A DNA stretch of 64,000 bases from Bryobacteraceae bacterium (GCA_036501045.1 DASYAX010000407.1:8670-72669); one strand, 5' to 3'. Shown: positions 1,982 to 43,202, counted from the first letter of the stretch. The notes: generated by a model not told the origin, from the sequence alone. A program made the numbers and translations.

Positions 1982-3577
1982 ATTACACGCCGCCAGTTCT
2001 TTCAAAACAGCGGGCTCATGATGCCCGCTCTCATGGTTCCCGGCCATCAGATGCCAAAAATGGCGCCTCTGCCGTCGATGCTCGATCCAAATACACTAGC
2101 TGCCTTCGTCGATCCGCTTCCCTTGTTGCCGGTTGCGAAAAGCGCCGGCATCCGGCCTGCCCCCGATGACGCTCGGGTTCGTCTGCCGTACTACCGCATG
2201 CCGATCCGCGAAATTCACAGCAAAATTCACCGCGATGTGAGCCCGACGCGTTTCTGGTCCTACGGATCCAGCGTTCCGGGCCCGGTCTTCGAAACGCGCA
2301 GCGGCGAAGGGCTCTTGGTCGATTGGCCGAATGAACTACCGCGCGAGCACTTCTTGCCCATCGATCACAATCTGATGGGCGCCGAAGCGCATCAACCCGC
2401 GGTGCGAACCGTGGTTCATCTGCACGGCGCCAAAACTGCGCCGGAGAGCGATGGTTACCCCGACGATTGGTACGTTTCCGGAAAATCGCGGCTTTATCAT
2501 TATCCGAACCAACAGGAACCGGCGCTTCTCTGGTACCACGATCACGCCATGGGTATCAACCGCTTGAACATTTATGCCGGCATGGTCGGGCTGTTTATCA
2601 TCCGCGACAAATTCGAAGATGGGCTCAACTTGCCGAATGGGAAGTACGAAATTCCGTTGGTGATTTTCGATCGCCTGTTGACCGCCGACGGCCAGCTCTA
2701 CTATCCGGTTTCAAACCAGCCGGAGGCGCCATGGGTGCCGGAGGTTTTCGGAAATGCCGTACTCGTCAACGGCAAGCTTTTCCCCTATCTGGACGTCGAG
2801 CCGCGTAAGTACCGGTTCCGTCTGCTGAACGGTTCGAATGGCCGTTTTTACACTCTGCTGCTCGGGAACGGCCAGACATTTTTCCAAATCGGCTCCGATC
2901 AGGGATTGCTTCCCGCGCCTGTCGAGTCCAAAAGCGTGTTTCTTGCGCCCGGCGAGCGATCGGACTTTATCGTTGATTTCGCGGAACATCGCGGGGAGCA
3001 GATCGTGCTGCGCAACGAAGGCTTCAACGTTCTGCAGTTTCGCGTGGCGCGCGCCGCGAGTAACGACACGAGTTCGTTGCCCAAAGCCTTGAGACCGGTT
3101 CCCAGAATGCCCGCCTCCACGGCCATCCGTACCCGCAATCTGGCGCTCGAGGAATTCGACAGCATTCTTGACGAGCCCATCACTCATCTGCTGAATGGCG
3201 CGCGCTGGCATGATCCCATAACGGAAAATCCGCTGCTCGATAGCACCGAAATCTGGTCATTCATCAATGTGACCGACGATTCCCACCCCATCCATCTGCA
3301 TTTGGTTCGCTTCCAGATTCTCGACCGCCGTCCGTTCGACGTGACCGAATATCTGATCAAGAAACAAATCCGCTATGTAGCGGAAGCCGTCCCGCCCGAT
3401 CCCGTCGAAGCCGGTTGGAAAGATACCGTCCGCGCCACCCCGGGAGCAGTGACGCGCATTATCGTCCGCTTCGAGGGCTACGCCGGCCGTTACGTGTGGC
3501 ACTGCCATATTCTCGAGCACGAAGATAACGAAATGATGCGGCCGTACGAAGTGATTGCCGGGAAGTCGGGCGTTTAG
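1982..3577 (+). CDS. Multicopper oxidase (CotA/bilirubin-oxidase/CueO-like), probably Tat-exported
   Basis: Copper-site motifs HLHGAKT, WYHDHAMG, HPIHLHLV and HCHILEHEDNEMM. The conservative ATG start is 2018. The in-frame upstream codons encode I-TRRQFFQNSGL (twin-arginine motif), preceded by AAGGAG at 1967-1972, so I extend the start to ATT 1982 (see findings). Confidence 0.85.
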   Translation: MTRRQFFQNSGLMMPALMVPGHQMPKMAPLPSMLDPNTLAAFVDPLPLLPVAKSAGIRPAPDDARVRLPYYRMPIREIHSKIHRDVSPTRFWSYGSSVPGPVFETRSGEGLLVDWPNELPREHFLPIDHNLMGAEAHQPAVRTVVHLHGAKTAPESDGYPDDWYVSGKSRLYHYPNQQEPALLWYHDHAMGINRLNIYAGMVGLFIIRDKFEDGLNLPNGKYEIPLVIFDRLLTADGQLYYPVSNQPEAPWVPEVFGNAVLVNGKLFPYLDVEPRKYRFRLLNGSNGRFYTLLLGNGQTFFQIGSDQGLLPAPVESKSVFLAPGERSDFIVDFAEHRGEQIVLRNEGFNVLQFRVARAASNDTSSLPKALRPVPRMPASTAIRTRNLALEEFDSILDEPITHLLNGARWHDPITENPLLDSTEIWSFINVTDDSHPIHLHLVRFQILDRRPFDVTEYLIKKQIRYVAEAVPPDPVEAGWKDTVRATPGAVTRIIVRFEGYAGRYVWHCHILEHEDNEMMRPYEVIAGKSGV

Positions 3578-3595
3578 AGGATCCTTTTGAAAACG

Positions 3596-3905
3596 GAGAG
3601 TGACCGAGGCGCTCTGCGAAGCGTCCGTGCCGGCGTTTCCATTGATCTGATCGCCAGGGGATTCTGCTGCCTCAAACCGGGTGTCCTGGCCAGACCGAAA
3701 ACATTCGCGTCCGCTCCGTCATCGGCCGCTTCCTCGAACACTCGCGCATCTACTACTTTGGCGCGGGCGCCGAAAACCCGCTCAAGAGCGAGTTCTATAT
3801 CGGTTCCGCCGATTGGATGTTCCGGAATCTCTCGAAGCGTATTGAAGTGGTAACTCCGGTGACGGCGATGCGTCCGAAGCAGCGGCTCTGGGAAATTCCC
3901 GAGAT
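3596..3905 (+). pseudogene. ppk1: Polyphosphate kinase 1 C-terminal fragment, frameshifted and truncated at both ends
   Basis: Frame 2 reads ...[19 protein letters not shown]. After a 1-nt shift near 3685, frame 1 reads [59 protein letters not shown], which matches the conserved PPK1 C-terminal domain. There is no coding sequence for the N-terminal ~550 aa and no start codon. Confidence 0.7.
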
Positions 3906-3919
3906 CTCAGGTTGCAGCC

Positions 3920-4438
3920 TCAGTGCTGGCCCATCTCGTTTGGCGTTGCCGGTCGCCACGCAGTGAATTTTCCAATCTCATAGCGATCGCATCGAATGAA
4001 TGTTCGATCTGCACTCTCAACAATTGCTCCCAGCGAATAGTCTCCGTCCTGACAACGGCAGGAGTGGTCCGACGTTGACGGTCGTATCTGACAGACAGCG
4101 CGTGAGCTGCTCTCTGTTCTGGGTTGCTGACTAAACCGAAACACCGCGCCCAGAGGTTTCATGGTTGGTATCCACTCACCCGCCGAACACTCATGTTTGG
4201 CCGAGTCTATCCAAATCACTGACCCTGCTAGAAATTGACGACCGTGTGCAAAGCAAACACTTTCTTTATCTGTCGAAGCTATGGCTCCCTGTTTGTCCGC
4301 AGACTGCGCTGCTAGGGCAGACGGATGCAGGAATCCAAGGCCCAAGGTAAGAATTGAGGCGGCTCCCACACCAAGAAGGAGACCTGAAATTTGAGAAGCA
4401 GAAGGACGTGAGGAATATCTCATTGCTAACTCCGTCAA
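3920..4438 (-). CDS. Hypothetical small secreted or membrane-anchored protein with two Cys-bounded repeats
   Basis: 172-aa ORF with a hydrophobic N-terminal segment ([27 protein letters not shown]). An internal repeat C-x6-[FY]-x2-G-[SA]-[VI]-[IV]-x8/9-C occurs twice ([23 protein letters not shown] and [24 protein letters not shown]). The patch is visibly lower in GC than its flanks. Confidence 0.5.
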
Positions 4439-4532
4439 AATTCCTGAGATATAGTTCTCCGGTTCGACACAGGAGCGGACTGCTAGCTCATTATAGGTCT
4501 TTTTGCGCTCCGCGGCGGTAAAGCGTCCTGCG

Positions 4533-6215
4533 CTAACGCGGGCGCGCCGGAAGCTTCGCGAGCGCCAAACGCAGCGCTGCGGAATCTTGCACTGCCAACG
4601 CGCGCCGATACAGTTCCGCGGCTATTGGGTAATCCTGAAATTCAGCCTCGATATACGCGTAAACGGACAAGGCCTCGAAATTCTTAGGCTCAGTCGCCAA
4701 AACAATGCGCACCCGATCTCGAGCGGCGTCCAGATGGCCCGTCATCGCCTCCAACCGCGCAAATTCGATTTGCGATTGGTCCGTCAAGCCTTTATCGAGC
4801 GAGGCCTGCAGGTTTTGCCGCGCTTCTTCAAATTTGCCTCTCAAAAGATACTGGTGGCCGATGGAAGCAAACCGTAAGGCCGGAACAAGATTCGCATTAA
4901 AGGACAACAGCGTTGCCGCGGGAGGAGTGCTTTTTTCTTCGGTCACGATAAACTCGGCGCTTCGCGAGTCGCTTCCCTCATTCGCTTCCAGCGTGTACGT
5001 GCCTGCCGGAAATCCCGCGCTCGGCAATTCGACCGTCGCCACTTGCTGGGCATCGGAAGCGCCTTTCCAGAGCACCTGAACACCTTTGCGAATCACCCAG
5101 TTCACCCTTCCGGGTTTCGCCGCCGCCACTACCGCGAACCTTCCTTCGGCATTCGGTTCGAGTTGCCTACCGTCGAAGGCAAACGGAGTTCGTGCGCTGC
5201 TCGCCGCGCTTTGATCCACCCGCAGGATTTCGCCCATCGGCGTTTGTGATTCGATTCTAAGTGGATACGCGTACGTCTGTCCGTCCACTGCGAACAGCAC
5301 CCGGTATGAGCCGGGAAGCAGGTCCAGACGATGCACATAATGAATTGCCTCCGCTTTGCGAAACTTCAAGTGGAGCCGGTTCTGATAGACCGCGACCGGC
5401 CCTTCGTAGATCGCTAGATTCAACTCGCGTGCAGCGTTGGTCTCGAGCCGCATGTCGACCTGTGACCCGCCATACGTCGAAACAGTCTCAAGAGTGTCGA
5501 GCTTGGGGCGGCCGGCAATGAATCTGGATTGAACTTGCGTTTGCGGCGATTTTCCGAGCATCATCCAGGGCGACGTGATCTGCGCCAGAACCTCGTCATT
5601 GCCGGTGTTCGTAATGCCACTCGCAACGTTCACCGCCGCCGATACGATCTCATCTTCCGCCGGACTCACATTCAATGTGGTTCGGATGTTGGCTTCGGTA
5701 ATACCGTCATTCGGACCGAACATGCCGATTGTTCCGGCTTCCGGCAGCAGCAAAGCCCGAATGGTATCGAGCGTCGGCGAATACAATTTGGGAAATCCGA
5801 GACTGTTCTTCTGGTAAAAGATCAGACGTAATTCCGTAGTCAACTGAAGAGCCGGAACCGTGTCGTAGTACCAGATCTCCAGCGGTACGAAAATTCGCGA
5901 AGAGGGGATACGGGTGATGCGCGTGGGCGGACCAAGCGATAGATACACACGGCCCGGATCGGTATTCACGCCTGAGGCGAGTTTGCCCGATCCAAACGTG
6001 GTATCGACGTATTGAAGCCGCCGGTAATACTCTTCCGGCGTAATCGATTTTTCAGCCCAAAAGTTCTCTTCGAATTGCGCCCTGGCCTCCGGCTGCAGCG
6101 AAAGATAAATCTTTCGTTCTGCCGGAGTGATGATCGGGTCCACCGACGCCAACCAACCGGAAGCAGCGGCCTGAAGCCACAACGCGGTGGTAATGAAGAG
6201 AAAAGCAAACCGCAT
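4533..6215 (-). CDS. GWxTD-domain protein with C-terminal TPR-like region
   Basis: Signal peptide MRFAFLFITTALWLQAAASG at the internal ATG 6215; the longer ORF start at 6365 would overlap the upstream gene. The region FWAEKSITPEEYYRRLQYVDTTFG...SGVNTDPGRVYLSLGPP matches the GWxTD-domain pattern, with V in place of W. The C-terminus has TPR-like helices. Confidence 0.75.
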   Translation of the reverse strand: MRFAFLFITTALWLQAAASGWLASVDPIITPAERKIYLSLQPEARAQFEENFWAEKSITPEEYYRRLQYVDTTFGSGKLASGVNTDPGRVYLSLGPPTRITRIPSSRIFVPLEIWYYDTVPALQLTTELRLIFYQKNSLGFPKLYSPTLDTIRALLLPEAGTIGMFGPNDGITEANIRTTLNVSPAEDEIVSAAVNVASGITNTGNDEVLAQITSPWMMLGKSPQTQVQSRFIAGRPKLDTLETVSTYGGSQVDMRLETNAARELNLAIYEGPVAVYQNRLHLKFRKAEAIHYVHRLDLLPGSYRVLFAVDGQTYAYPLRIESQTPMGEILRVDQSAASSARTPFAFDGRQLEPNAEGRFAVVAAAKPGRVNWVIRKGVQVLWKGASDAQQVATVELPSAGFPAGTYTLEANEGSDSRSAEFIVTEEKSTPPAATLLSFNANLVPALRFASIGHQYLLRGKFEEARQNLQASLDKGLTDQSQIEFARLEAMTGHLDAARDRVRIVLATEPKNFEALSVYAYIEAEFQDYPIAAELYRRALAVQDSAALRLALAKLPARPR

Positions 6216-6216
6216 C

Positions 6217-9048
6217 TTAAAACTCGATACGCCCCGCAAACTGCAGCATGCGTGCCGCGTAAGCAAGATCTGAATTCTGGACCGGCGCTCCGTAGGAAGC
6301 TGCGGTGACAACCGTCTGGTAGCCGCCGAAATTCGAATGATTGAACAGGTTAAAGGCCTCCACAATCGGAATGAAGCGCAGGTGTTCCTTCACCGTGAAT
6401 GTCTTCGAAAGGCGCAGATCGACGCGTTCAATCGGATTCCCATACAGTGAATCGCGCGCTACGATGTTGTATCCGGGAACGGTTGACGCCTTAATGTTGG
6501 CGGATGAAGTATAGTAAGCCGCCGTTGTGGGCAGCAGGCGATTGTCGACGGTAGCGCCGAACGGATTGTATCCCGCCGTCACCTGGTATGCCTGGCCCGA
6601 TCCGTAATGGAACGAACCGCTGAGGGAAAGCCCCCACTTCCACAGATAAGAACCACTTAAGGTCAGCGTATTTCGCTGATCGTCCGGAGAATTCGCCCAT
6701 TCGTCCGCGAAGTTAAACGGATTGTTGGGGTAATAAAACGGTCCGGTCGTCGAGTCTTTGAGCCGCGCAAGCGTGTAAGCGGCCGAGGCGGACACGTTCT
6801 GTGAAAAGCGATGTTGCACGCCAACCTGCAAGCCGTCATAGATAGACCCCGCGGCGCCAGGCGTGTAGAAAGTCAGGATGTTGGTGAAGTTCGGATTCGG
6901 CCGGCCGGCGGTCGTCGGATTCATGTTGTAGCCGGTCGCGGGATTGTAGTAGAGGTTTGCGTCACTGCGGATCCAATCGTGGTAAACACGCCAGTGCAAA
7001 TAATCGGCGGAAACCACCCAGGTCTTGGTGATTTGCCGCTCCACGCCGATGCTCAACTGAAGCGAGTAGGGCGTGTGCACATTGGGCGCCAGCAATTGGA
7101 GCGCCTGCGCGCTGACCGGAACGGCGCCCGAAAGAAATTCGTCCCCGGTGACATTGCCGAACGGCGCGGACAAATTGATGGGATTACCGGTAGAAGCCTG
7201 CACGGACGGCTGCAGCGACGTTTGACCGTTGAAGATCTGTTGATCGATGGTCTGGTTGGCCTGAATGTCTCCGTAAAACAGGCCGCCGCCGCCGCGGATT
7301 ACGGTTTTCCGCGATCCGGTTGGATCGTAAGCAAAGCCAACTCGCGGCGCGAACAGCAGGTTATCGTTATGGTGCGGCGTTTGCAATCCGCTCTTCAAAT
7401 TCAGCGAAGGATCGAAAATGCCGAGGTCGTTATCGTAGCGAACGCCCAAATTCAGCGTGAGCTTGGGACTCAGCTTCCAGTCGTCTTGCACCCACACTCC
7501 AATGGCATTCGTCGGGATGTGGATGTTAAAGTTGCCAAACCCTTGCACGTACGAAACCGCCAGCGGACTGATGGCCGCAATGTTCCAGGTGGACGGATCG
7601 TTCCAGGTGGGGAAGATGGCGTTGAAATTCGACGGGTTCGCCGAGAACGACAGCACTGTGCCGCGAATGTTCTGCTGAAACAGACCGGAATACATGGTGT
7701 GCAAGTAATCGATGCCGGCCTTTAGGCTGTGGCCCCCTTTCAACCAAAACAGATCGTCGCGATACTGCTGCGTGTTCTGAATAAAATGTTGCGGATAGTT
7801 GTAAGGGCCGCCCACGGTGATGGTCGGGAACCGGTATTCCTGGCTTTGCACCAATGGCGTATTTTGCCAATCGAAGTGATTCAAACCGCCTTTCATCTCG
7901 TTGACCAGCGCCGGAGTCAGGGTTGACGTCCAAGTCCCAAGGAATGCATAACTGGTCCTGGTGGAATCCGTCGCGCGCGTGGGCGATGAACTTCCGGTCA
8001 CGTTGTTGAACGGAACCGCCCAGGTGTAGCCCGTGGCTCGTGCCGAAAGGCGATTCTTGCTGTTGATCTGCCAGTCGGAACGCAGCAAATAGCTGTTGGT
8101 CCTTAGTTCGTTTGGAAACGTGAACGATTCGCCGGTGAAGCCGGTGGGCGTGGCAAAGACGGTGTTGGGCTGCCGCTCCCCCTCATAGCCAAAAAAGAAA
8201 AATAGTTTGTCTTTGAGGATCGGTCCGCCCACCGTGCCGCCGAATTGTTGATCGGAGAACGGCAGCACCTTGTGCGCCACCGGATCGGACGCGTTGAAAG
8301 CGCTGTTGCGGAAATAACCGTACAATGTGCCGTGAAATTGGTTCGTGCCCGCCTTGGTCTGAACATTCACCTGCATTCGCGACGATCTTCCCAGCGTGGC
8401 GTCAAAACGGTTCGTGATGATTTGGAACTGGTCGATCGCGTCCTGGCTGTATTGCGGCTCGCCGAAGGCATCACCGGCAGCATTCTGCGTGACCTGCTGT
8501 CCGTCTACGTTGATCTGCAGCTTTCCGCTGTCGGTGGCGCCCAGCGGCGAATTCGTGACGTCGTTGCTCGTAATGCCGGGCACCATCATGGCTAATTGCA
8601 AATAATTGCGGCCGTTTAGCGGCAGTTTCTTGACCTCGGTCGGGCTGACGTCTCCGGAGATGGTGGAGCTCGATGTATCCACCGCCACGGCCGTCTCTTC
8701 CACGTTCACCGAAGAACTGGTCGTTGCCAATTGGAGCGTGACATCGACGCTCGCCACCTGCCCGACCAGCAGTGTAAGAGTGCGCTCCGCCGGAGCAAAC
8801 CCTGGGCTCTCAAACCGCAGAACATATGTCGCCGCCCGGAGAGTAGGAAATTGATAGAGGCCGGTGGCGTTGGTGAGTGTGCTCACCTTCGTTGCGTCTT
8901 GACCCGTTGCGGTTACTCTGACGTTGGCAATAACCAGGTTCGATGGATCGCTCACGCGTCCACTGATTCCCGTTTGCTGCGCCAGTAGCGGCGAGCAAAC
9001 AAGGCCCGCGAGGAGGAATGCCGATTGGTAATTTCTAAACCAGCTCAT
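6217..9048 (-). CDS. TonB-dependent-receptor-like outer-membrane protein with N-terminal CarboxypepD_reg domain
   Basis: Signal peptide MSWFRNYQSAFLLAGLVCSPLLAQQ. SGRVSDPSNLVIANVRVTA...TGLYQFPTLRAATYVLRFESPGFA is a carboxypeptidase-regulatory-like fold. LPLNGRNYLQL is plug-like, the body is a long beta-barrel-like sequence and the protein ends in F. Its stop lies 1 nt before the start of the GWxTD gene. Confidence 0.85.
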   Translation of the reverse strand: MSWFRNYQSAFLLAGLVCSPLLAQQTGISGRVSDPSNLVIANVRVTATGQDATKVSTLTNATGLYQFPTLRAATYVLRFESPGFAPAERTLTLLVGQVASVDVTLQLATTSSSVNVEETAVAVDTSSSTISGDVSPTEVKKLPLNGRNYLQLAMMVPGITSNDVTNSPLGATDSGKLQINVDGQQVTQNAAGDAFGEPQYSQDAIDQFQIITNRFDATLGRSSRMQVNVQTKAGTNQFHGTLYGYFRNSAFNASDPVAHKVLPFSDQQFGGTVGGPILKDKLFFFFGYEGERQPNTVFATPTGFTGESFTFPNELRTNSYLLRSDWQINSKNRLSARATGYTWAVPFNNVTGSSSPTRATDSTRTSYAFLGTWTSTLTPALVNEMKGGLNHFDWQNTPLVQSQEYRFPTITVGGPYNYPQHFIQNTQQYRDDLFWLKGGHSLKAGIDYLHTMYSGLFQQNIRGTVLSFSANPSNFNAIFPTWNDPSTWNIAAISPLAVSYVQGFGNFNIHIPTNAIGVWVQDDWKLSPKLTLNLGVRYDNDLGIFDPSLNLKSGLQTPHHNDNLLFAPRVGFAYDPTGSRKTVIRGGGGLFYGDIQANQTIDQQIFNGQTSLQPSVQASTGNPINLSAPFGNVTGDEFLSGAVPVSAQALQLLAPNVHTPYSLQLSIGVERQITKTWVVSADYLHWRVYHDWIRSDANLYYNPATGYNMNPTTAGRPNPNFTNILTFYTPGAAGSIYDGLQVGVQHRFSQNVSASAAYTLARLKDSTTGPFYYPNNPFNFADEWANSPDDQRNTLTLSGSYLWKWGLSLSGSFHYGSGQAYQVTAGYNPFGATVDNRLLPTTAAYYTSSANIKASTVPGYNIVARDSLYGNPIERVDLRLSKTFTVKEHLRFIPIVEAFNLFNHSNFGGYQTVVTAASYGAPVQNSDLAYAARMLQFAGRIEF

Positions 9049-10463
9049 TTGCCTGCCACCTCGACTAAAGTTTGGTAAATCCATTTCTCGCCCTCATCGA
9101 GCGATTTCACCGGAACACGTTCGTCGTTGCCGTGCATCCGGCTTAAGTCTTCGTCTGTAATTGGGTAGGGATAAACTCCATAAACGGGAACGCCGCGGCT
9201 GCGCCATGCCACCGCGTCGGTTCCCGCCTGAAACAAATAGGGCGTCACCGGCGCACTCCAGATCGAATCGGCGGTCTTCGCCAGAGTCTGGTAAAGTTTC
9301 GTGTCGGTGGGCGATTCTTTCACGCCATGCATGATGTTTCGATACCGTGCATAAAGCGCGCCTTCGGGTCCTTTCAGCGAAGGCGTCGCCACGTCCACGT
9401 CCGGATCGTCGATCACTTTCTTGATCTCGGCAATCAAATCCTCTGTCTTCGTACCGGGAATCGTCCGGAAATTGATGGTGGCCGTCGCGGAGCCCGGAAT
9501 CACGTTGCCCCGAAAGCCCGCGTTCAGAAAAACAGGCGCAATCGTGTTGCGCATGATGGCATGCAGCAAAACATTTTTGCTGATCTCTTTGCTCGCCTCT
9601 TCCACCACCGCGGGATCGGTGCTGTTGACCAGGTTGTAGAAGTAGGTCGACATAGGCGGCTCACTGGTCTTCGCCAGCGTCAGGAAAAATTCCTTGGTGC
9701 TCGCCGTCAATTGCGGTTTGGTGTCGTATCGGGATAGTTTGGCAAGGGCGTTGGCCAGCCGGAAAATCGCATTGTCGGGCCGGGGCATGGAGGAGTGCGT
9801 CGATGTTCCATGAGCAGTGAGCAATAGTGTGACGCTTGACTTATCCGCCGTCGAAATGCTGACGTAGCGAACCTTGCCATCGGGCCGCTCCATGATCCAG
9901 CCGCCTTCATTGAGAGCAAATTCACAATCGATCTTGTCCCAATTCTTTTGTGCCAGCCACATGGTGTTGTACTGCGCGCCTTCTTCATCCGCCTCCACCA
10001 AAAAAATGACGTCGCGCTTGAGCGGAACCTTGTTCTTGGCAAGCTGCATGACGGCTTCGGCGAAAACGGCCACGCCGCCTTTGAAATCGATCGCGCCGCG
10101 CCCGTACAAATAGCCGTCCTTGAGCACGCCCGCGAATGGATCCACCGTCCATTTCTCGCGCTCGACGCCTACCGTGTCGCCATGCGATGCCAACAGCAGC
10201 GGCCGCGCGCTCCCATCGCCCTTCAAGCGCGCGATTAGGTGCGATTTCCCGGGTTGCGGAGTCGGAATAATATCGATTTGAAAACCCAGCGGCTTCAGCT
10301 TTGCCGCTAGCAAACTGTCAAGCTGGCCTTCGTTGCCCGGCGGGTTGCAATTGTTGACCCGTAGAAGTTCCCGCAGCAAGTCCGCAGTCGGATTTTGGGC
10401 CACTGATGCAGGCGCCGCGCAAAGCAATAGGGCGAATAACCAATTACGGTGACTAACCACCAT
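9045..10463 (-). CDS. Secreted M20-family metallopeptidase (dipeptidase/carboxypeptidase type)
   Basis: Signal peptide. Motifs ASHGDTVGV, GRGAIDFKGG and LVEADEEG match M20 metal and catalytic residues. Its stop overlaps the OMP start (ATGA at 9045-9048). Confidence 0.85.
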   Translation of the reverse strand: MVVSHRNWLFALLLCAAPASVAQNPTADLLRELLRVNNCNPPGNEGQLDSLLAAKLKPLGFQIDIIPTPQPGKSHLIARLKGDGSARPLLLASHGDTVGVEREKWTVDPFAGVLKDGYLYGRGAIDFKGGVAVFAEAVMQLAKNKVPLKRDVIFLVEADEEGAQYNTMWLAQKNWDKIDCEFALNEGGWIMERPDGKVRYVSISTADKSSVTLLLTAHGTSTHSSMPRPDNAIFRLANALAKLSRYDTKPQLTASTKEFFLTLAKTSEPPMSTYFYNLVNSTDPAVVEEASKEISKNVLLHAIMRNTIAPVFLNAGFRGNVIPGSATATINFRTIPGTKTEDLIAEIKKVIDDPDVDVATPSLKGPEGALYARYRNIMHGVKESPTDTKLYQTLAKTADSIWSAPVTPYLFQAGTDAVAWRSRGVPVYGVYPYPITDEDLSRMHGNDERVPVKSLDEGEKWIYQTLVEVAGK

Positions 10464-10546
10464 GAACCTCCAAGCCTGGAACAGAGTAATCTCTTACAGG
10501 TCAAGAATCGGCTCGGTCGTGGAGCGTACCTTTAGGTATAAGAGCG

Positions 10547-10575
10547 AGTATCGAAGAAGCGCTGCCCCTTGTCAA
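10547..10575 (-). promoter_or_regulatory. Candidate sigma70-type promoter for the M20/OMP/GWxTD operon
   Basis: On the minus strand: TTGACA (10575-10570), a 17-nt spacer, then GATACT (10552-10547), with an AT-rich stretch upstream. It lies about 80 nt upstream of the M20 start. Confidence 0.35.
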
Positions 10576-10602
10576 CCGCCTTTAGTAATGTATTTGAAAA
10601 AT

Positions 10603-11565
10603 CTATGGCTCGTAGTAGCCGGTGCGCGCGCTAACTTTCAGCGCCGCATCGCGCGTCCCGACCGTCACCGGATGGAAGCGCCGCGGCTCTTCGCGCACGT
10701 TTCTTGGATAGAACCCTAACAAATATTGCGTTCGCAGCTCTCGAATGATGTCCGCAAAGGCGCTATCGAGCTCGGCAAAGCCCTCCGGATAGAAAATCCG
10801 GCCGCCGGTGGACGCGGCGAGCGTAGCGAGCGCATGCTCCCCGCCCGTATTACGCCCGGCATCGTTAGCGATGGGCACCACTACGATCGGATAAAGGACC
10901 ACGTCCGCGCGCTGTGCTGCCGTCAGCGCATCGCCATAATGTTTGTAGCTCGTGGTGTCTCCGCCGTCGGTTACCACGATCATCACGTGCCGGCCCTCCC
11001 GATCGCTCAGCGTGTTACTCGCCAGATAGAGGGCATCATATAGAGACGTTCCGCCCTCGCCCTGCAAGCCGCGCAAAGCACGTTCGGCGCGCTTATGATT
11101 GCGCGAATAATCGACCTCCAGGTTCGTGTGCCAGTTGAAGCTGAATAACGCGAACGTGTCCTCCGGATTGCCCGCTCCCAACAACGTCGGAATGAAGCGC
11201 AGCACGGACTCGGTTTCATAGTGCAGATCGATCCGTGTGCTGCCGCTCGTGTCAATCAGAATCGCCACCGACAATGGCAGCGAAGTATTCCGTTCAAACA
11301 CGGCGATGTTTTGCATCACCCCGCTATCGAGCACCTGAAAGTCTTCCTTATCGAGATTCGTCAGGATGGCGCCGTTTGCGTCCCGCACCGAGACCAGCAG
11401 CCGGACTAAGTTCACCTTGATGGAAAAGGTCGGCGCCTCCGCCGATTGTTGGCGCGCCGGCGGCGGATGATTCGGATTCACCGGCTTAAACTGTCCCCAG
11501 CCGGGTGTCCCGGCACATACCAGGACCAGCCCCGCCAGCCAGCGGACCGCTTTACGTTTCGCCAT
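10603..11565 (-). CDS. VWA-domain protein (acidobacterial VWFA-related type), secreted
   Basis: Signal peptide MAKRKAVRWLAGLVLVCAGTPGWGQ at the internal ATG 11565. MIDAS-like motifs LIDTSGST, GGTSLYDAL and VVTDGGDT. Confidence 0.8.
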   Translation of the reverse strand: MAKRKAVRWLAGLVLVCAGTPGWGQFKPVNPNHPPPARQQSAEAPTFSIKVNLVRLLVSVRDANGAILTNLDKEDFQVLDSGVMQNIAVFERNTSLPLSVAILIDTSGSTRIDLHYETESVLRFIPTLLGAGNPEDTFALFSFNWHTNLEVDYSRNHKRAERALRGLQGEGGTSLYDALYLASNTLSDREGRHVMIVVTDGGDTTSYKHYGDALTAAQRADVVLYPIVVVPIANDAGRNTGGEHALATLAASTGGRIFYPEGFAELDSAFADIIRELRTQYLLGFYPRNVREEPRRFHPVTVGTRDAALKVSARTGYYEP

Positions 11566-12274
11566 GCCTCGACGAATCTGCCAGCAACCGCTCATCCCAC
11601 TCTCCGTCGACCCACACCGCGCCATCCGCGAAAAACTCCTTTTTCCAGATGGGAACTTCGCGCTTCAGACGGTTGATGCCCTCGAGAGCGGCCTCAAACG
11701 CCGCTTTGCGGTGAGGCGCAGTCGTGACCACGGCGACGCTTGCCTCGCCAATCTCCAGCCGTCCCAGACGATGGATCATGCCAATCCTGCCGACGGCGAA
11801 CTGGGCCGCGATCTCCCGGCCGATCCGCGCCATGGAGTTCTTTGCCATCTCTTCATAACACTCGTATTCCAGGTGAAGCGTGGCGCGTCCCTTCGTGTTG
11901 TTGCGCACCACCCCTTCAAACACCACCACCGCGCCGTCCTCCGGCCGCTGTAAGATCTCCGCCAGCCGCCGGGAATCGATCTTCTCGCGGATGATGGCGA
12001 AAAAATGCCCGTCCGCCTCCGGCGAGCCGCAACCACCGCTCACCGGCGGCAAAAAGGCGATCTCATCCTCGTCAGCGAGAGCGGTATCCGGCGCGGCAAA
12101 CTCCCGATTCCTTGCAAATAGAATCGACGGGCGCATCCGGTTCACGGTTTCGAAGCGTTCCGCGTACCCGGCAAAGACGCTCTCAAGCGTAGCCCCCGCG
12201 GGAACATCGAGCGCTTCCTCGGTCCGCCCCACCAAATCCTTCAGCGGCCCGAAAAATAACACCCTCACCCGCAT
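11552..12274 (-). CDS. moaDE: Fused molybdopterin synthase, MoaD (sulfur carrier) plus MoaE (catalytic subunit)
   Basis: The N-terminal ~82 aa is a ubiquitin-like MoaD ending in FLPPVSGG. After a short linker (CGSPEADGH) comes MoaE (VVVFEGVVRNNTKGR, MIHRLGRLEIGEASVAVVTTAPHRKAAFEA, PIWKKE). The 3' end overlaps the VWA gene start by 14 nt. Confidence 0.85.
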   Translation of the reverse strand: MRVRVLFFGPLKDLVGRTEEALDVPAGATLESVFAGYAERFETVNRMRPSILFARNREFAAPDTALADEDEIAFLPPVSGGCGSPEADGHFFAIIREKIDSRRLAEILQRPEDGAVVVFEGVVRNNTKGRATLHLEYECYEEMAKNSMARIGREIAAQFAVGRIGMIHRLGRLEIGEASVAVVTTAPHRKAAFEAALEGINRLKREVPIWKKEFFADGAVWVDGEWDERLLADSSRHGET

Positions 12275-12456
12275 GTCTCAAATGCTAACAAGGGGCGGCT
12301 ACCTCAAGCGCTACTTTTGAATCCGTTCTTCGATGCGCCCGGAATGCCTCCTCTCTGAACGTTGATGAACTGGCGGAGGCGATAGCCGAGTGCGTTTGGA
12401 CTCATCCGCACAACCTGCGTCAGTGTAAAGTCGCTGGCATTGCGCGACTCGTCTGA

Positions 12457-13521
12457 CTAGTCACAACCTAGCAGGGGATTGCCGCGGGCAATGCTACCAC
12501 TCCCATTTCGCAAGCCAACCCGGCAACTGGATTGCCGTGCCACCAGGCGAGGAGGAATCAACACGCAGCGGGGAACCGGTGGAGACTTGGCGCGCATGCA
12601 TTCAACCAGGATATTCGCGCTGGTTTCGCCGATCTTGGAGGCGCTTTGATCGATCGTGGAGAGCGGCACCCGCAGCAGATCGGAATAATGAACGTTGCCG
12701 GCGCCGATAATCGCCATATCTTCCGGAATCCTCGCGCCGCTCTCAAGTATCGCCTTGATAGCGCCTGCCGCCACTGGATCGTTATAGCAGAATACTCCGT
12801 CCGGCCGGCGTTTCAAGCTTAGAAGTTCCTTCATCGCGCGATAGCCGCTTTCATCGCCAGTCCCGCCTTCTACCACCGATTGCGAAAGGCGTTTCCGGCC
12901 GCTCTTTGCGATGGCGCGCTGAAAACCCTCCAGGCGGCGTGCTCCGTTCGGGTTGTCGGGGCCTCGGATGTGAGCGAGGCGCGTGCACCCCTGCTCAAGC
13001 AGGTGCGCGGTCGCCAGCTCTCCCAGGTCTTCGTCGCGGGTGCCGACATAGTTGACATTGACTCCCGCCGGCATCCGGTCAATCAAGACATATGGCGTGT
13101 CATTGTTTTTTAAAACGTGCGGGATCCCGCGCCGCCAATCGCGTTGCGCGGAAGCCACCACCAGCCCGTCCACGCTTCGCGCCAACAGCAGCTCGATTTC
13201 CCGCCGCTCCGTCGCCGCATCTTCGTCCGAGTTCGCGAGTACGATCTGGTATCCGAGCGGCCCTAACTCCTTCGTCAGGCCGTTGGCTACCTCGGCGAAG
13301 AATGAGTGCATCAAATCCGGGATGACCAACCCGACGATAAATGTGTGCCGGCTTACCAGACTGCGAGCGATCCAATTGGGTTGGTATTTCAACTGTTTGG
13401 CCCGCCGCAGAATGCGCTCACGCGTTTTCTCGCTGATGTCCGTATGGCCGCGAAGCGCCTTCGACACCGTCATCAGCGACACGCCCAGATCCCCCGCGAT
13501 GTCCTTCATCCGAACAGCCAA
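12457..13521 (-). CDS. LacI-family transcriptional regulator
   Basis: N-terminal HTH MKDIAGDLGVSLMTVSKALRGH, followed by a periplasmic-binding-protein-like sugar-binding core. Confidence 0.85.
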   Translation of the reverse strand: MAVRMKDIAGDLGVSLMTVSKALRGHTDISEKTRERILRRAKQLKYQPNWIARSLVSRHTFIVGLVIPDLMHSFFAEVANGLTKELGPLGYQIVLANSDEDAATERREIELLLARSVDGLVVASAQRDWRRGIPHVLKNNDTPYVLIDRMPAGVNVNYVGTRDEDLGELATAHLLEQGCTRLAHIRGPDNPNGARRLEGFQRAIAKSGRKRLSQSVVEGGTGDESGYRAMKELLSLKRRPDGVFCYNDPVAAGAIKAILESGARIPEDMAIIGAGNVHYSDLLRVPLSTIDQSASKIGETSANILVECMRAKSPPVPRCVLIPPRLVARQSSCRVGLRNGSGSIARGNPLLGCD

Positions 13522-13599
13522 GAAAGAAACCTCCTCTCGAAAGCCTACCTGGAATAGTCCTCGATAGCAAGCGGACGTAATTCTCCTTTACCGCTACAA

Positions 13600-13609
13600 T
13601 TAGCGCTAA
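13600..13609. promoter_or_regulatory. Candidate LacI-family operator (perfect 10-bp palindrome with central CG)
   Basis: TTAGCGCTAA is a perfect palindrome in the divergent lacI/GH27 intergenic region. It fits the general AANCGNTT core of LacI-family operators. Confidence 0.35.
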
Positions 13610-13627
13610 AGAAAATATAAAATACTC

Positions 13628-13656
13628 TTGACAAGCACTCGTAAAGTTATCGAATT
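13628..13656 (+). promoter_or_regulatory. Candidate sigma70-type promoter for the GH27 operon
   Basis: Perfect TTGACA at 13628-13633, preceded by an AT-rich stretch (GAAAATATAAAATA). A weak -10 (TCGAAT or CGAATT) lies 16-17 nt downstream. This would give a leader of about 220 nt. Confidence 0.3.
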
Positions 13657-13882
13657 GAAGTCGCGCCGGTACTTTCTGGTAGACTCCACGTTTGAGAACG
13701 GTTCCGTCCGTCGTCTCGCCATCCACTCGCTAGCCGGCGCACTGTGCCGAATCGCGAATCCGTGGGAAAGAGCGCGCGTTACCATCGAACGGGATGGAAT
13801 CCGCGCCGAAATGCTCGAGGGAGAAACGTTGACATTTCGAACCAGGAAAGGCGAACAAAATCGCACTGCTACATGAGGCGTT

Positions 13883-15385
13883 ATGAAGAAATTGCTAATC
13901 GTTCTTTTGTCGGCCCAGACCTTGTGCCTGGCGGCCGATTTGACAGGCAATTGGGTGGCTCTCGATCCTCGGCCCGACGGCACCGTCCGAAGGACCTATT
14001 TCAACCTCAAACAGGACGGCTCGAACATTACGGGCTACATTCGCGGCAGCCAGTTCTACTACCAGATCACTGAAAGCACCGGAGGCCCGGATGGGTTCAC
14101 TCTCACCGGCAGCATGCCGGATGGCAGCAGCACGCGGCACGCCAAGTACGAGGGAAAGCTGGTTGGGGACGAACTGCAAATCAGTACCCGCCGCCGGCCG
14201 GATGCGCCGATCACCGAAATGGTCGCGCACCCGGCGCCGGCCGGTGAAGGCGCGCTGCCCGCTCGCTTGCCGCTTCCCGCGCTGCATCGCGTGCCCTACA
14301 ACGGCCTCGCCAAAACGCCGCCCATGGGCTGGAACAGTTGGAATAAATTTGCCTCCAAAGTAGACGATGCCGCCGTGCGCGCGGCCACCGACGCGATGGT
14401 CTCGACCGGGATGAAGAAGGCCGGCTATATCTACGTCAACATCGACGACACTTGGCAAGCCGGCCGCGACGCGCAAGGAAACATTCAAACCAATAAGAAA
14501 TTCCCGGACATAAAGGCCCTCGCCGATTATGTTCATAGCAAAGGTCTCAAGCTTGGCATCTATTCGTCTCCAGGCCCCAACACCTGCGCCGGCTACGAGG
14601 GCAGCTACGGACACGAAGCGCAAGACGCGAAGACCTACGCTTCCTGGGGAATCGATTATTTGAAATACGACTGGTGCGGCGCCCGAACCATCTATAAAGA
14701 CGAGGACATGCAGGCCGTCTATCAGAAAATGGGCGATGCACTCGAAGCCTCGGGCCGGCCCATCGTGTACAGCCTCTGCCAATATGGCCGCGCCGACGTG
14801 TGGAAGTGGGGTCCCGAGGTCAGTGGAAATCTCTGGCGAACCACCGGCGACATTCGCGACACCTGGGATTCCATGACCAAGATCGGCTTCAAGCAGGGTG
14901 AGATTGCCCAGTATGCCGCGCCGGGTCATTGGAACGATCCGGACATGCTCGAAATCGGCAATGGCGGCATGAATGAAACGGAGTATCGCACCCATATGAC
15001 GCTCTGGTCGATGCTCGCCGCCCCACTGCTTGCCGGCAACGATCTCGAACATATGTCACCGGAAATATTGGCGATCCTCACCAACCGGGATGTAATCGCC
15101 CTCGATCAGGACCCGGCCGGCAAGGAAGCCACTCGTATTGCGAAAGCCGGCGATTCCGAAGTATGGATGAAAGAGCTCGCGGGCGGCGCGAAAGCGATTG
15201 CCCTCTTTAATCGCGCCACAGAGCAAGCCAGCGTCTCCGTAAAATGGACCGATGCCGGCTTCACGCGCGCGCCCAAGCGGGCACGCGATCTTTGGCTTCA
15301 CAAAAACGTGGCCTTACACGGGTCGGAATATTCGACGGCGGTTCCCGCACACGGTGTGGTGGTGCTTCGTGTACCGGCCGCCTAA
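13883..15385 (+). CDS. Alpha-galactosidase, glycoside hydrolase family 27, with an extra ~110-aa N-terminal domain
   Basis: Signal peptide. GH27 motifs PPMGWNSWNKF, YVNIDDTWQ, YLKYDWC and DPDMLEIGN. Confidence 0.85.
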   Translation: MKKLLIVLLSAQTLCLAADLTGNWVALDPRPDGTVRRTYFNLKQDGSNITGYIRGSQFYYQITESTGGPDGFTLTGSMPDGSSTRHAKYEGKLVGDELQISTRRRPDAPITEMVAHPAPAGEGALPARLPLPALHRVPYNGLAKTPPMGWNSWNKFASKVDDAAVRAATDAMVSTGMKKAGYIYVNIDDTWQAGRDAQGNIQTNKKFPDIKALADYVHSKGLKLGIYSSPGPNTCAGYEGSYGHEAQDAKTYASWGIDYLKYDWCGARTIYKDEDMQAVYQKMGDALEASGRPIVYSLCQYGRADVWKWGPEVSGNLWRTTGDIRDTWDSMTKIGFKQGEIAQYAAPGHWNDPDMLEIGNGGMNETEYRTHMTLWSMLAAPLLAGNDLEHMSPEILAILTNRDVIALDQDPAGKEATRIAKAGDSEVWMKELAGGAKAIALFNRATEQASVSVKWTDAGFTRAPKRARDLWLHKNVALHGSEYSTAVPAHGVVVLRVPAA

Positions 15386-15411
15386 ATGCGGCGTTGGAGA
15401 ATGAAGAAAAG

Positions 15412-16293
15412 ATGCGTCATTCAAGGCTGATCCGTTTCGAGATAATGCTGGTCTTTGCGGCCGCCTGCGCCTGGAGCCAGGAGCCGCCCACCGCTGGTGC
15501 GGGCCAGACCCGACCCGGAGGCGATGACACGGTTAGCGCTGCCGCCCTCGCCGGGTCCAAGCAGGATCCCGCCGCAGTCGAGCGCGGCGGCAAGGTTTTC
15601 GCACAATACTGTGCTGGCTGCCACGGTGTCGCCGCTAAAGGTGGCCCGGGCGCGCCGGATCTGGTCCGGTCTCTGCTTGTTCTGGACGACGAGAAAGGGA
15701 GCTTGATCGCGCCAGTCGTTCGGGAAGGACGCCCCGACAAGGGGATGCCGAAATTGAATCTCAGCGAGGCGCAAATTTCCGACGTCGTCGCCTGGCTGCA
15801 CGTCCGAACCTACGCCGCCGGTCATCGTGGAACCTATACCTTCCGCAACGTCGTGACCGGCGACCCGAAGCAAGGCGAGATCTATTTCAACACGGCAGGG
15901 AAGTGCAACACCTGCCATTCGCCCACTGGCGATCTCGCGGGTATTGCCAGCAAATATGATTCGCTCTCGCTGCAAACCCGCTGGTTGGAACCACGGGAAC
16001 CCAGACGCAGAGGCCGCGGCGCCTCGGCGCATGCTGCGTCCGCGAGTCCCGCGACGCCTCACGTCACGGTCACCCTCCCTTCCGGAGAATCGTTTTCCGG
16101 CACCTTGGATCACATCGATGACTTCACCGTCTCCTTGCGCGATTCCAGCGGCCAATTCCATTCGTTCACGCGCGATGGCGCGACCCCCAAAGTCGTCGTG
16201 CATGATCCGCTCGAAGCCCACACCGAAATGCTCCGCCACTACACCGACGCTGACATCCACAACGTAACCGCCTATTTGGTGACGCTGAAATGA
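15412..16293 (+). CDS. Dihaem c-type cytochrome
   Basis: Start taken at the internal ATG 15412 (MRHSRLIRFEIMLVFAAACAWSQ signal). Two CxxCH motifs (CAGCHG, CNTCHS). The stop overlaps the next gene start (ATGA at 16290-16293). Confidence 0.8.
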   Translation: MRHSRLIRFEIMLVFAAACAWSQEPPTAGAGQTRPGGDDTVSAAALAGSKQDPAAVERGGKVFAQYCAGCHGVAAKGGPGAPDLVRSLLVLDDEKGSLIAPVVREGRPDKGMPKLNLSEAQISDVVAWLHVRTYAAGHRGTYTFRNVVTGDPKQGEIYFNTAGKCNTCHSPTGDLAGIASKYDSLSLQTRWLEPREPRRRGRGASAHAASASPATPHVTVTLPSGESFSGTLDHIDDFTVSLRDSSGQFHSFTRDGATPKVVVHDPLEAHTEMLRHYTDADIHNVTAYLVTLK

Positions 16294-22841: not shown

Positions 22842-25028
22842 CTAGCGCGCGGCCAAGCTTGCCTGACCTTCTTTCAGATAACGATCAAAAAAACGGGCCG
22901 CTCGTCCGAAAGCATCTTTCAGCGTTTCGTCACGCACGTACGCGTGGCTTTCTTCCGGATAAAATGCTTCTTCAAACTGTTTTCCTTCATGGATCAATTT
23001 CTCGGAAAGCTGCACAGCTTCCTGGAACAGTACGTTATTGTCCACGATACCGTGGAAAATGAGTAAGTGATTCTGTAACTGCCCGGAAAAATGGATCGGC
23101 GAGCTGCGTTGATAAGCCTCCGGATTCTCCGCCGGCGTGGTCAGCCGCTCGTCCGTGTAATTGGCATTGTAATTGGCCCAATCGTAGACACCCGAAAACG
23201 CTGCACCCGCCTTGAACGTCGTGGGCGCTTTGAACATCGCCATGGCCGTCATGAAGCCGCCATAGCTCCAGCCCCAGATACCCACACGTGCCATGTCGAT
23301 ATTCTTAAGACCGCGAAGATATTCCACGCCGCCCAAAACATCCTCTAAATCGGGGCCGCCCATGTTGAGATACACTCCGCTGCGCCAATCGCGGCCATAA
23401 TTCGTACTGCCGCGATAATCCATTTCGAGAATGACGTATCCCTGCTCAGCCATGTAGTTGTTAAACACAAAGCGAAGTTCCTGGTAGCTTCCCCATTGCT
23501 TGAGGACGCTCGTGGCGTATCCCGAACCATGTATATAGATGATCGCCGGGCGTGGCTTCTGATTGGGCTGTTCGGGGACATAGCCAGGCGGAAGGAGAAG
23601 CCGCGCCGAAACAGGCTTGCGATCCTTCAACGATGGATAGGTCACGAATCGCGCCGCCGCCCATGGCAGCCGATAGAACTCAGGAAGCGGCGACTTAGTA
23701 ACTTGCTCGCCGTTCACATAGAGGTCGAACGGATTCTTCATGTCCGCCTGCAGCATGGCTCGCGCCTGGCCATCTTTCGACATCCAGCCAATATTGAGTC
23801 CTTCCAGTTTCGACAAACGCTCGGGTGCCCCCGAACCATCCGCCTTCGTCCGGTAAAACTGGCGTTCGGCGGTACTTTCGGCGGTCGACGAATAGTAAAT
23901 CGAATCGCCGATCCACTCAGGGCTATGCGAGAAAGGATCGTTGTGAATCTCCCACGAGCCGTGGGTAATTTGCTTGAGACCGCTGCCGTCGATCGCAACC
24001 GTGTAGAGATGTTGAAAGCCCGATTGATCGCTGGTAAACCAAATGCGCGTGGAAGCCGGGTTCCAACCAACGTCCGAAACCTCTATCCAGCGGTCGTCGG
24101 TTTGATGAAAGACAGCTTTCGATTTTCCCGAATTGACGTCAACGATCCGGATTTCCTCGCTCTTATAGTTAGCCGCTTGGCTCGCCAGCGCCAGATACTT
24201 GGAATCTTCCGACCAGTGCGGCGGCCGCGCGTCGAGCCCATGCCCGGTATCGAGAAGCCGCGGGGGGTTGTCCCCGCTCGCTTCCGCTACATACCATTGG
24301 CGCGCAATCGGTACATCCCCGGCCACCGTTCTGGGAAATGGCGGCGTTGTGACGAACTCACCCGAGTAGTTCGGCAGTGGCACGGTCCGCCCGGCCCGCG
24401 GCTGTACTGAATACGAAAGATAACGGCCATCCGGCGACCAACTGAAGCCGCCAAGGCTCGCGGGAGGTCTCACATCGGTGCGTTGCTCGAGCGTGCCGCC
24501 GTCCAGCGTGAGAATATAGATCTCGCCTGCCTGCGTGAACGCAACCCGTTTGCCGTCCGGTGAAAACTGCGGGCTCACTTCCTGCGCTTTCGTCTTGGTT
24601 AGGCGAAGCAGCGGCCCGCCGCTCGCCGAAGCGATAAAGAGATCGCCGTGATACGAGAAAACAGCTTTGCTGCCATCTTCGGCAAGATCGAACGAAGTAA
24701 GTCCCGCCTCGGGAGGCAGGTAGTCTTTGCGGTGAACATCGCGCTCCGCGTCCGTCTCATTAATCGGATCTTTCAGCCCTTGCAAATCCGTTAGCCGCAC
24801 CAATTTTTTCGAATCGGAGTCGTAGACGTACAGGTCCCGGAATGTTTCGCCCTTGGCGTTCCATAGAAAACCAAGCAAATGCGCATGCTTCGCCCAGGCA
24901 ATTTGAGAAGGCCAAGTCCCCCAAACGTACGGCCGGGAAAACAACTGGTCGAGCGACCAGCCTTGGCCCATCGCGAGGAACGCGGCGGCAAAGAACGCAA
25001 CGATCAATCGAAGCATGAAACCGACCAT
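22842..25028 (-). CDS. S9-family serine peptidase (prolyl oligopeptidase / DPP-like, beta-propeller plus alpha/beta hydrolase)
   Basis: The N-terminal propeller has TolB-like repeats (SPDGKRVAF, SPDGRYLSY). The catalytic region has GIWGWSYGG (nucleophile elbow), HGIVDNNV and ESHAY. Confidence 0.85.
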   Translation of the reverse strand: MVGFMLRLIVAFFAAAFLAMGQGWSLDQLFSRPYVWGTWPSQIAWAKHAHLLGFLWNAKGETFRDLYVYDSDSKKLVRLTDLQGLKDPINETDAERDVHRKDYLPPEAGLTSFDLAEDGSKAVFSYHGDLFIASASGGPLLRLTKTKAQEVSPQFSPDGKRVAFTQAGEIYILTLDGGTLEQRTDVRPPASLGGFSWSPDGRYLSYSVQPRAGRTVPLPNYSGEFVTTPPFPRTVAGDVPIARQWYVAEASGDNPPRLLDTGHGLDARPPHWSEDSKYLALASQAANYKSEEIRIVDVNSGKSKAVFHQTDDRWIEVSDVGWNPASTRIWFTSDQSGFQHLYTVAIDGSGLKQITHGSWEIHNDPFSHSPEWIGDSIYYSSTAESTAERQFYRTKADGSGAPERLSKLEGLNIGWMSKDGQARAMLQADMKNPFDLYVNGEQVTKSPLPEFYRLPWAAARFVTYPSLKDRKPVSARLLLPPGYVPEQPNQKPRPAIIYIHGSGYATSVLKQWGSYQELRFVFNNYMAEQGYVILEMDYRGSTNYGRDWRSGVYLNMGGPDLEDVLGGVEYLRGLKNIDMARVGIWGWSYGGFMTAMAMFKAPTTFKAGAAFSGVYDWANYNANYTDERLTTPAENPEAYQRSSPIHFSGQLQNHLLIFHGIVDNNVLFQEAVQLSEKLIHEGKQFEEAFYPEESHAYVRDETLKDAFGRAARFFDRYLKEGQASLAAR

Positions 25029-33992: not shown

Positions 33993-33993
33993 G

Positions 33994-36749: not shown

Positions 36750-36784
36750 GAGCTTATAAGAACCGGCGAAGCCGAGCCAGTCCG

Positions 36785-39039: not shown

Positions 39040-39071
39040 CGGATTATTCTCGCCTAGACTCGGCTTAGGGA

Positions 39072-43196: not shown

Positions 43197-43202
43197 TTAA
43201 AA

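Follow-up and report, generated by a model that had tools for sequence, protein, structure and literature searches.

A conserved operon of a secreted peptidase, an outer-membrane barrel, and a GWxTD protein in Bryobacteraceae and related bacteria

Described transporter loci and the locus in the window

The described systems closest to the locus analyzed here are of two kinds. The SusCD and RagAB systems of Bacteroidota are represented by RagAB, a pair consisting of a TonB-dependent transporter (TBDT) and a lid of tetratricopeptide repeats (TPRs) that is implicated in protein and oligopeptide uptake; RagA is a 22-strand barrel and RagB a four-TPR lid (PMC11817032; bioRxiv 10.1101/755678). The second kind is the Oar subclass of TBDTs, defined by a PF13620 extension, whose Myxococcus xanthus member, Oar, has been shown by experiment to be needed for the protease PopC to be secreted (PMC6434023). 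We report here on positions 4533-11565 of a 64,000-nucleotide stretch of DNA from a Bryobacteraceae bacterium (GCA_036501045.1, DASYAX010000407.1:8670-72669), the whole of which is called the window below. In this locus, genes for a secreted M20 metallopeptidase, a CarboxypepD_reg-type outer-membrane protein (OMP), and a GWxTD-family protein follow one another.

The locus shares with SusCD and RagAB a CarboxypepD_reg-type extension on the barrel, a TPR-containing partner gene placed immediately downstream of the barrel gene in the same operon, and secreted hydrolases that lie alongside and vary between paralogous loci, the enzymes being peptide related, as in RagAB. The SusC/SusD-type organization of a transporter gene, then a partner gene, with hydrolases alongside, is therefore present. 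The components differ, however. The window partner is not a SusD/RagB homolog, has no lipoprotein signal, and contains a GWxTD domain and two Ig-like domains, while the window barrel is a PF25183 protein for which sequence searches matched no solved TBDT. Because the partner lacks both of the SusD features tested (fold or hidden Markov model [HMM] match, and lipoprotein signal), the resemblance is best described as a locus that may work like SusCD/RagAB, rather than as a member of that group. What would be new is a nonhomologous and structurally unmatched partner within a transporter-partner-hydrolase locus of a known type.

Acidobacteriota are among the most abundant soil bacteria, and their genomes contain very large expansions of CarboxypepD_reg-type outer-membrane barrels. 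The window belongs to this phylum, as the names of homologs place it in Bryobacterales/Bryobacteraceae. For Solibacter, TonB-type receptors and VWA proteins are listed among the large paralog families (PMC3174227). In the literature searched, no paper was found that names GWxTD, TIGR04514, PF20094, TIGR03436, or PF25183. The OMP-GWxTD pairing described below offers a first clear partner for the GWxTD family, to which no function has been assigned.

A first-pass annotation, made from the sequence alone, had described four co-directional genes in this region, and these are present with the domain assignments it gave. All lie on the minus strand and encode, in the order of transcription, a VWA protein (10603-11565; 320 aa; TIGR03436 match), the M20 metallopeptidase (9045-10463; 472 aa; PF01546 and PF07687 matches), the OMP (6217-9048; 943 aa; PF13620 and PF25183 matches), and the GWxTD-family protein (4533-6215; 560 aa; TIGR04514 match). 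The finer details that it reported can be seen as well. The M20 stop and OMP start overlap in an ATGA at 9048-9045, a single base (6216) separates the OMP stop codon (6219-6217) from the GWxTD ATG at 6215, and a TTGACA-N17-GATACT sequence is found at 10575-10547, between the VWA and M20 genes. By eye, each of the four N-termini looks like a signal peptide, with a basic n-region ahead of a hydrophobic core and an A-x-A-like site. The annotation had not recorded that the VWA ATG at 11565 overlaps by 14 nt the stop (11552) of an upstream moaD-moaE fusion gene (11552-12274, minus strand), whose product combines a ThiS-like N-terminus with a MoaE domain. Given this overlap, the VWA gene is coupled upstream and not to the M20 gene, from which it is separated by a 139-nt gap that holds the promoter candidate. 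The unit is a three-gene operon, promoter-M20-OMP-GWxTD, and not a set of four genes.

Conservation of the operon and exchange of its hydrolase

Full-length GWxTD orthologs were aligned, and 40 loci were fetched from one-genome-per-species GTDB contigs. Thirty-nine of these carry Bryobacterales-type orthologs (GWxTD identity, 38 to 65%), and the remaining one encodes a distant Ignavibacteria protein. Neighbors were surveyed by tblastn and by clustering of all neighboring open reading frames (ORFs) across loci. Wherever DNA was available in the 39 loci, an OMP ortholog (51 to 79% identity) was found directly upstream of the GWxTD gene, with one fragmentary, degraded locus (L030) as the sole exception. 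The distance from the OMP stop to the GWxTD start is mostly -4 to +30 nt. The module extends from the relatives of the window to Paludibaculum and Bryobacter, and the remaining flanking genes differ.

A secreted hydrolase is coupled to the OMP-GWxTD pair in 36/39 loci, but its identity varies. The M20 gene lies upstream of the OMP gene in the window and in 21/39 loci, including the deepest branches, Paludibaculum and Bryobacter; the junction reads AAATGA in the window and seven loci, with gaps of 12 to 36 nt in the others. M20 is absent from 15 loci, which encode instead a secreted protein of about 1,000 aa consisting of two PD40 beta-propeller regions and an amidohydrolase domain, for which the best NCBIfam match is a Caulobacter Xaa-Pro dipeptidase model (below cutoff). 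Its gene directly follows the GWxTD gene in 14 loci, with a 4-nt overlap between the GWxTD stop and the amidohydrolase start in four and a gap of 3 to 24 nt in four others; in the last (L012), it is divergent and upstream of the OMP gene. Neither hydrolase is present in L019 or L029, and L037 is truncated. As M20 is swapped for an unrelated amidohydrolase in 15 loci, the peptidase is a swappable accessory rather than a fixed subunit. The presence of two unrelated exopeptidase-type folds in the same slot suggests that amide hydrolysis is part of the function, and points to peptides or related amides as the probable substrate class.

The pair also duplicates as a unit. Two metagenome-assembled genomes carry two module copies each (L003 with L019; L005 with L008), and neighbor-joining trees of OMP and GWxTD proteins are largely congruent. 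Together, these observations indicate that OMP and GWxTD are inherited as a pair that travels as a unit while the enzyme is exchanged. M20-type and amidohydrolase-type loci do not form two clean clades but interleave, although the trees are crude and their branching is not resolved. Apart from the module genes and the amidohydrolase, clustering of all neighbors revealed no other recurrent neighbor beyond the closest relatives. A downstream 172-aa ORF (3920-4438), a LacI-type ORF, and the other flanking ORFs of the window are not conserved beside the module, and the VWA gene adjoins it in 0/39 loci. The first-pass annotation had staked its proposal on the adjacency of OMP with GWxTD and of M20 with OMP in related genomes. 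Both adjacencies proved strongly conserved; the M20-OMP-GWxTD part of its gene set stands, and the VWA gene drops out. In one complete Bryobacteraceae chromosome (L023), a second paralogous OMP of the same class directly follows the GWxTD gene (11830-15666, plus strand).

The sigma-70-type promoter candidate TTGACA-N17-GATACT (10547..10575, minus strand) lies about 84 nt upstream of the M20 start and is the best promoter-like match in 3500-13800 (10/12). Promoter-like sites are not enriched in this region (5 found versus 4.1 expected), and the site alone is not statistically notable. Its position, however, is kept among relatives. A regular expression (TTGAC[AT]-N16-18, then a -10-like hexamer) matched 60 to 127 nt upstream of M20 in 18/21 M20-type loci (17 related loci and the window), and by eye the remaining three contain TTGACA-N17-TAGCAT. 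A similar site is found upstream of the OMP gene in 8/15 loci without M20. Across 15 aligned leaders, no block other than the -35 TTGAC is invariant. Such positional conservation at this level of protein divergence argues for a genuine promoter of the module, placing the 5' end of the operon at M20. At its other end, no convincing intrinsic terminator was found 3' of the GWxTD gene, where terminator-like sites occur at background level. We also considered whether the 84-nt 5' untranslated region holds a riboswitch or another conserved leader RNA and rejected the idea, as there is no Rfam match and conservation of the leaders does not reach past the promoter. A stretch that can form a hairpin, GATCGCAAACGCG...CGTTTGCG, is common to the M20 5' leaders of the closest M20-type relatives (L001, ~5620-5650; L015, ~5640-5670; L021, ~745-775); neither the window nor more distant loci have it.

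Beyond this orthogroup, the GWxTD N-terminal domain used as a query retrieved 1,428 clusters (formed at 50% identity) with E<=1e-3. Of these 1,428 clusters, the type seen most often in the 150 best is a canonical subfamily whose members have about 690 to 710 aa and the motif GWxTDRGR. A profile of the whole canonical protein was swamped by TPR proteins and a domain-only profile gave mainly short or partial proteins, which limited the sample; 12 distant GWxTD neighborhoods were looked up singly, a small set from lineages that differ from those of the Bryobacterales background used below. For seven of these 12 GWxTD genes, a PF13620+PF25183 OMP gene is no more than 4 kb away. The OMP gene is directly upstream and co-directional, in the same OMP-then-GWxTD order, in L043 and the P0272 contigs; it is adjacent but divergent or convergent in L044 and L051, and within 1 to 4 kb in L045, L046, and L047. 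No OMP gene is nearby in L040, L041, L048, L049, or L050. Because 792 kb of Bryobacterales DNA contained five non-module OMPs of the same class (about one per 150 kb), 7/12 is far above chance.

Some distant loci encode further components beside the GWxTD and OMP genes. A third type of hydrolase, a sulfatase (PF00884)-TPR fusion, occurs in L041 (2262-4454), L045 (444-2786), and L051 (10755-12723), genes for CarboxypepD_reg-TPR proteins of about 310 aa occur in L045 (8090-9007), L046 (8993-9970), and L047 (5024-5953), and some loci have two GWxTD genes. These features hint at a larger, multicomponent version of the module in other lineages.

The proteins of the locus

The OMP consists of a signal peptide (residues 1 to 24), a CarboxypepD_reg N-terminal extension (residues 28 to 106; 8731-8967, minus strand; PF13620, 66.7 bits), a plug-like region (residues ~107 to 250; 8299-8730, minus strand), and a beta-barrel that runs to residue 943 (PF25183 OMP_b-brl_4, 364 bits). 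It ends in ...GRIEF, with a C-terminal Phe. Residues 99 to 250 align by hhalign (99.8% probability) to the N-terminal region of a paralog (L047, 8234-10774) with a recorded Plug match. Between the extension and the plug-like region, the strand VNVEETAVAVD is, by eye, a candidate TonB box. PF00593 matches the window OMP negligibly (E=1.3) and gives weak matches in 11/18 orthologs (best, 7.6e-7). Sequence searches with a single sequence or a profile retrieved no relative of the OMP with a solved structure, and no solved TBDT was matched.

Judged by its PF13620 extension, the OMP is a TBDT-like barrel of the Oar subclass, and by homology it is presumably TonB dependent. In M. xanthus Oar, too, a PF13620 extension precedes a plug-like region and a large barrel, and an OMP-protease link exists in both cases; in the parts of PMC6434023 that we read, no GWxTD-type partner is mentioned. 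In contrast to the Oar subclass, the window OMP lacks a Pfam Plug match, and its PF00593 match is the negligible one given above.

The window contains a second PF25183 OMP gene (30508-33992, plus strand), which is split into two or three ORFs and is either frameshifted or a pseudogene. A gene for a 502-aa all-TPR protein (33892-35400, plus strand) directly follows and overlaps it, forming another barrel-then-TPR pair, and a tRNA gene (30174-30247) lies just upstream of the split gene.

The product of 4533-6215 matches TIGR04514 with 65.7 bits (cutoff, 28; residues 23 to 118, profile positions 4 to 105 of 105), which bears out its assignment to the GWxTD family in the first-pass annotation. PF20094, which is precomputed for many of its orthologs, scores 25.6 bits, just under the gathering score of 26.9, and there are TPR matches at the C-terminus. 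The literal G-W-x-T-D motif is absent. The window protein reads S-G-V-N-T-D-P-G-R, and the subfamily consensus is SGANTDQGR (SG[AV]NTDxGR), so that the eponymous Trp is replaced and T-D-x-G-R is kept, whereas canonical relatives have GWxTDRGR. Canonical members of TIGR04514/PF20094 (~690 to 710 aa) share the layout of signal peptide, N-terminal GWxTD domain, beta-sandwich middle, and C-terminal TPRs. Several of these canonical members are likewise neighbors of PF25183 OMP genes. Compared with them, the window protein is one of a divergent Bryobacterales subfamily that is shorter (~560 aa) and has lost the Trp.

An AlphaFold2 model of the full GWxTD protein (predicted local distance difference test [pLDDT], 84.5) divides it into an alpha/beta N-terminal domain (residues 20 to 236; 5508-6158), two Ig/FN3-like beta-sandwiches (residues 238 to 440; 4896-5504), and three TPRs with a capping helix (residues 445 to 554; 4554-4883), all on the minus strand. 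Among the 50 matches listed in a Foldseek search of this model against the PDB, all were TPR proteins (consensus designs and the Hsp90-cochaperone type) or Ig/FN3 pairs. In its TPR part, the model is similar to three-repeat TPR domains, some of which bind peptides. The N-terminal domain, modeled alone with a pLDDT of 84.4 and a predicted template modeling (pTM) score of 0.81, has no solved relative detectable by a sequence profile against the PDB or by Foldseek with the full model or the isolated domain (best E=0.66). It is highly conserved, with about 27 invariant positions among 120 orthologs, and the full-length orthologs are 38 to 79% identical.

A SusD-like identity for this protein was considered and rejected. 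There is no Pfam SusD match, no SusD/RagB structure appears among the 50 Foldseek matches listed, and no lipoprotein signal is present, as the window signal peptide contains no Cys and the orthologs have none at the lipobox position. With its SPI-type signal peptide, the GWxTD protein is expected to be periplasmic by default.

The M20 protein has a catalytic domain (PF01546, 89 bits; cutoff, 24.6) and a dimerization domain (PF07687, 50.6 bits; cutoff, 21); its best NCBIfam match, NF006596, scores 295 bits, below the cutoff of 349. The motifs SHGD 93, GAIDFKG 123, ADEEG 158, NEGG 184, and MHGNDE 443 presumably supply the five metal ligands and catalytic Glu (H-x-D, bridging D, E-E, E, and H), an assignment based on the motifs of DapE/CPG2. 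The closest solved relatives are DapE, ArgE, and aminoacylase-1.

The window VWA protein is a clear member of TIGR03436 (201.7 bits; cutoff, 81.25; profile positions 1 to 322 of 324) and also matches PF00092 (50.7 bits). A 723-aa TIGR03436 protein, P0328 (254 bits), is encoded at 7001-9172 in L052-L057, six places that all come from one population (n = 1). Its C-terminal half (residues 431 to 697) and the beta-sandwich region in the middle of canonical GWxTD proteins are homologs (hhalign 97%, E=7e-11), and its gene begins 11 nt downstream of a CarboxypepD_reg/PF25183 OMP gene (3498/3540-6989). This single case suggests that VWA and GWxTD may be alternative heads on a common partner scaffold. 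Unlike P0328, the window VWA protein is a short form that lacks the beta-sandwich region common to GWxTD proteins, and its gene is not conserved beside the module and is coupled to moaDE. The overlap itself is an odd pairing, joining a molybdopterin synthase gene to that of a secreted VWA protein.

Proposed function and rival explanations

We favor, with moderate confidence, a reading of the locus as a peptide-uptake locus in which an Oar-class TonB-type transporter works with its own soluble partner and with a periplasmic exopeptidase that can be swapped. The barrel would import oligopeptides or other amide-linked small substrates, the GWxTD partner would bind the cargo or the periplasmic face of the transporter through its TPR and Ig domains, and the hydrolase would trim the imported substrate for uptake across the inner membrane. 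From the conserved pair and its enzymes we infer the physical contact between OMP and GWxTD protein, the location of the components, the inward direction of transport, and the substrate. The recurrence of a secreted exopeptidase-type enzyme fits the "capture, processing, and uptake" that the first-pass annotation had suggested, and the conserved OMP-GWxTD and peptidase adjacencies provide the functional context for the GWxTD family that it had anticipated.

Several observations weigh against peptide uptake by such a pair. There is no Pfam Plug (PF07715) match in the window OMP (E<=10) or in 18 orthologs (E<=1), and the cluster includes no TonB or ExbBD genes. The lack of a lipoprotein signal and of SusD similarity in the GWxTD protein does not support a surface-lid role like that of SusD/RagB. 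The OMP-GWxTD pairing is seen at the level of gene linkage; the 39 loci are phylogenetically related and hence not independent observations, and the link is not universal in the family, given that five of the 12 distant GWxTD genes have no OMP gene nearby. M20 and amidohydrolase enzymes, moreover, also act on nonpeptide amides, such as N-acyl amino acids.

Since Oar is needed for the export of a protease, a serious rival by analogy is that the barrel serves export or surface display. The Oar-class OMP would then move the GWxTD protein, the hydrolase, or both from the periplasm to the surface or medium, and the GWxTD protein could act outside as a substrate catcher or an unlipidated lid. This would suit the Oar architecture of the OMP with its PF13620 extension, the Sec-type signal peptides of the module proteins, which carry no other sorting signal, and the variation of a cargo-like hydrolase beside a constant OMP-GWxTD pair. 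M20 and Xaa-Pro-dipeptidase-like enzymes typically finish off small peptides, however, and enzymes of this kind, here gated by PD40 propellers, suit the periplasm better than the medium. The requirement of Oar for PopC secretion is a precedent, but PMC6434023, as we read it, does not describe popC as lying beside oar, so that the precedent predicts no such gene linkage. On balance, we consider export unlikely. Equally unlikely, in our view, is that the proteins are co-regulated but physically independent members of one pathway, with adjacency reflecting shared regulation of envelope nutrient-scavenging genes. In its favor, the window is generally rich in secreted peptidases (M1, 19487-22147; S9, 22842-25028), and 5/12 distant GWxTD genes stand alone with no OMP gene near. 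Persistent tight gene order and paired duplication are, however, typical of interacting products. In the module, gene order and near-zero spacing persist down to 38% identity while the surroundings change, and within genomes the two genes have duplicated together.

It is also conceivable, but quite improbable, that the barrel has in the GWxTD/TPR protein its own periplasmic factor for assembly or quality control, comparable to the TPR-bearing BamD or BepA, and that the peptidase is merely co-regulated. TPR domains are common in the OMP-biogenesis factors of the periplasm, the partner gene tightly follows the OMP gene, with which it is co-inherited, and TPR-only or CarboxypepD_reg-TPR proteins follow other OMPs of the same class (33892-35400 in the window; L045-L047). 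Most paralogous OMPs of this class in the DNA examined, though, have no GWxTD neighbor, and an assembly role would leave unexplained both the constant presence of a hydrolase and the highly conserved 220-residue N-terminal domain with its ~27 invariant positions. The original version of the proposal, a stoichiometric envelope complex of four proteins with the VWA protein among them, is hardly credible. The window VWA protein is secreted and co-directional and its gene lies 139 nt upstream, and the long TIGR03436 protein found elsewhere shares the GWxTD beta-sandwich and follows a same-class OMP, so that the two families are related in context. Synteny nevertheless contradicts such a complex, with the VWA gene adjacent in 0/39 related loci, and we do not retain it as an operon member, because a conserved promoter intervenes before M20 and its start overlaps moaDE. 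The window protein is, in addition, the short form without the shared beta-sandwich.

Returning to the uptake reading, we propose more tentatively a generalization that we regard as possible but somewhat doubtful. GWxTD proteins and long acidobacterial VWA proteins, which have a beta-sandwich stalk in common, would form an unrecognized class of dedicated partners for Oar-type barrels. Such partners and barrels, joined by an exchangeable hydrolase (M20, PD40-amidohydrolase, or sulfatase-TPR), would constitute substrate-utilization loci of Acidobacteriota, a nonhomologous counterpart of SusCD/RagAB built on a domain without a solved relative. If true, pairing a transporter with a dedicated partner is a solution that also arose outside Bacteroidota, where the fold of the partner is unrelated. 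With a conserved barrel-partner-hydrolase module, the GWxTD family and perhaps also the VWA family of acidobacteria become testable. The module predicts a physical pair and a substrate class (peptides or amides), as well as a general rule for such genomes, that the adjacent enzyme names the substrate.

Elsewhere in the window, genes for an M1 aminopeptidase (19487-22147, minus strand) and an S9/DPP-IV-type peptidase (22842-25028, minus strand) lie about 8 to 14 kb from the operon; this peptidase-rich neighborhood is consistent with a proteolytic lifestyle. GC skew is negative over 1-34 kb and strongly positive from 44 kb. The sign change at ~34000-44000 could mark an origin or terminus of replication, or could reflect a change in the orientation of the genes.

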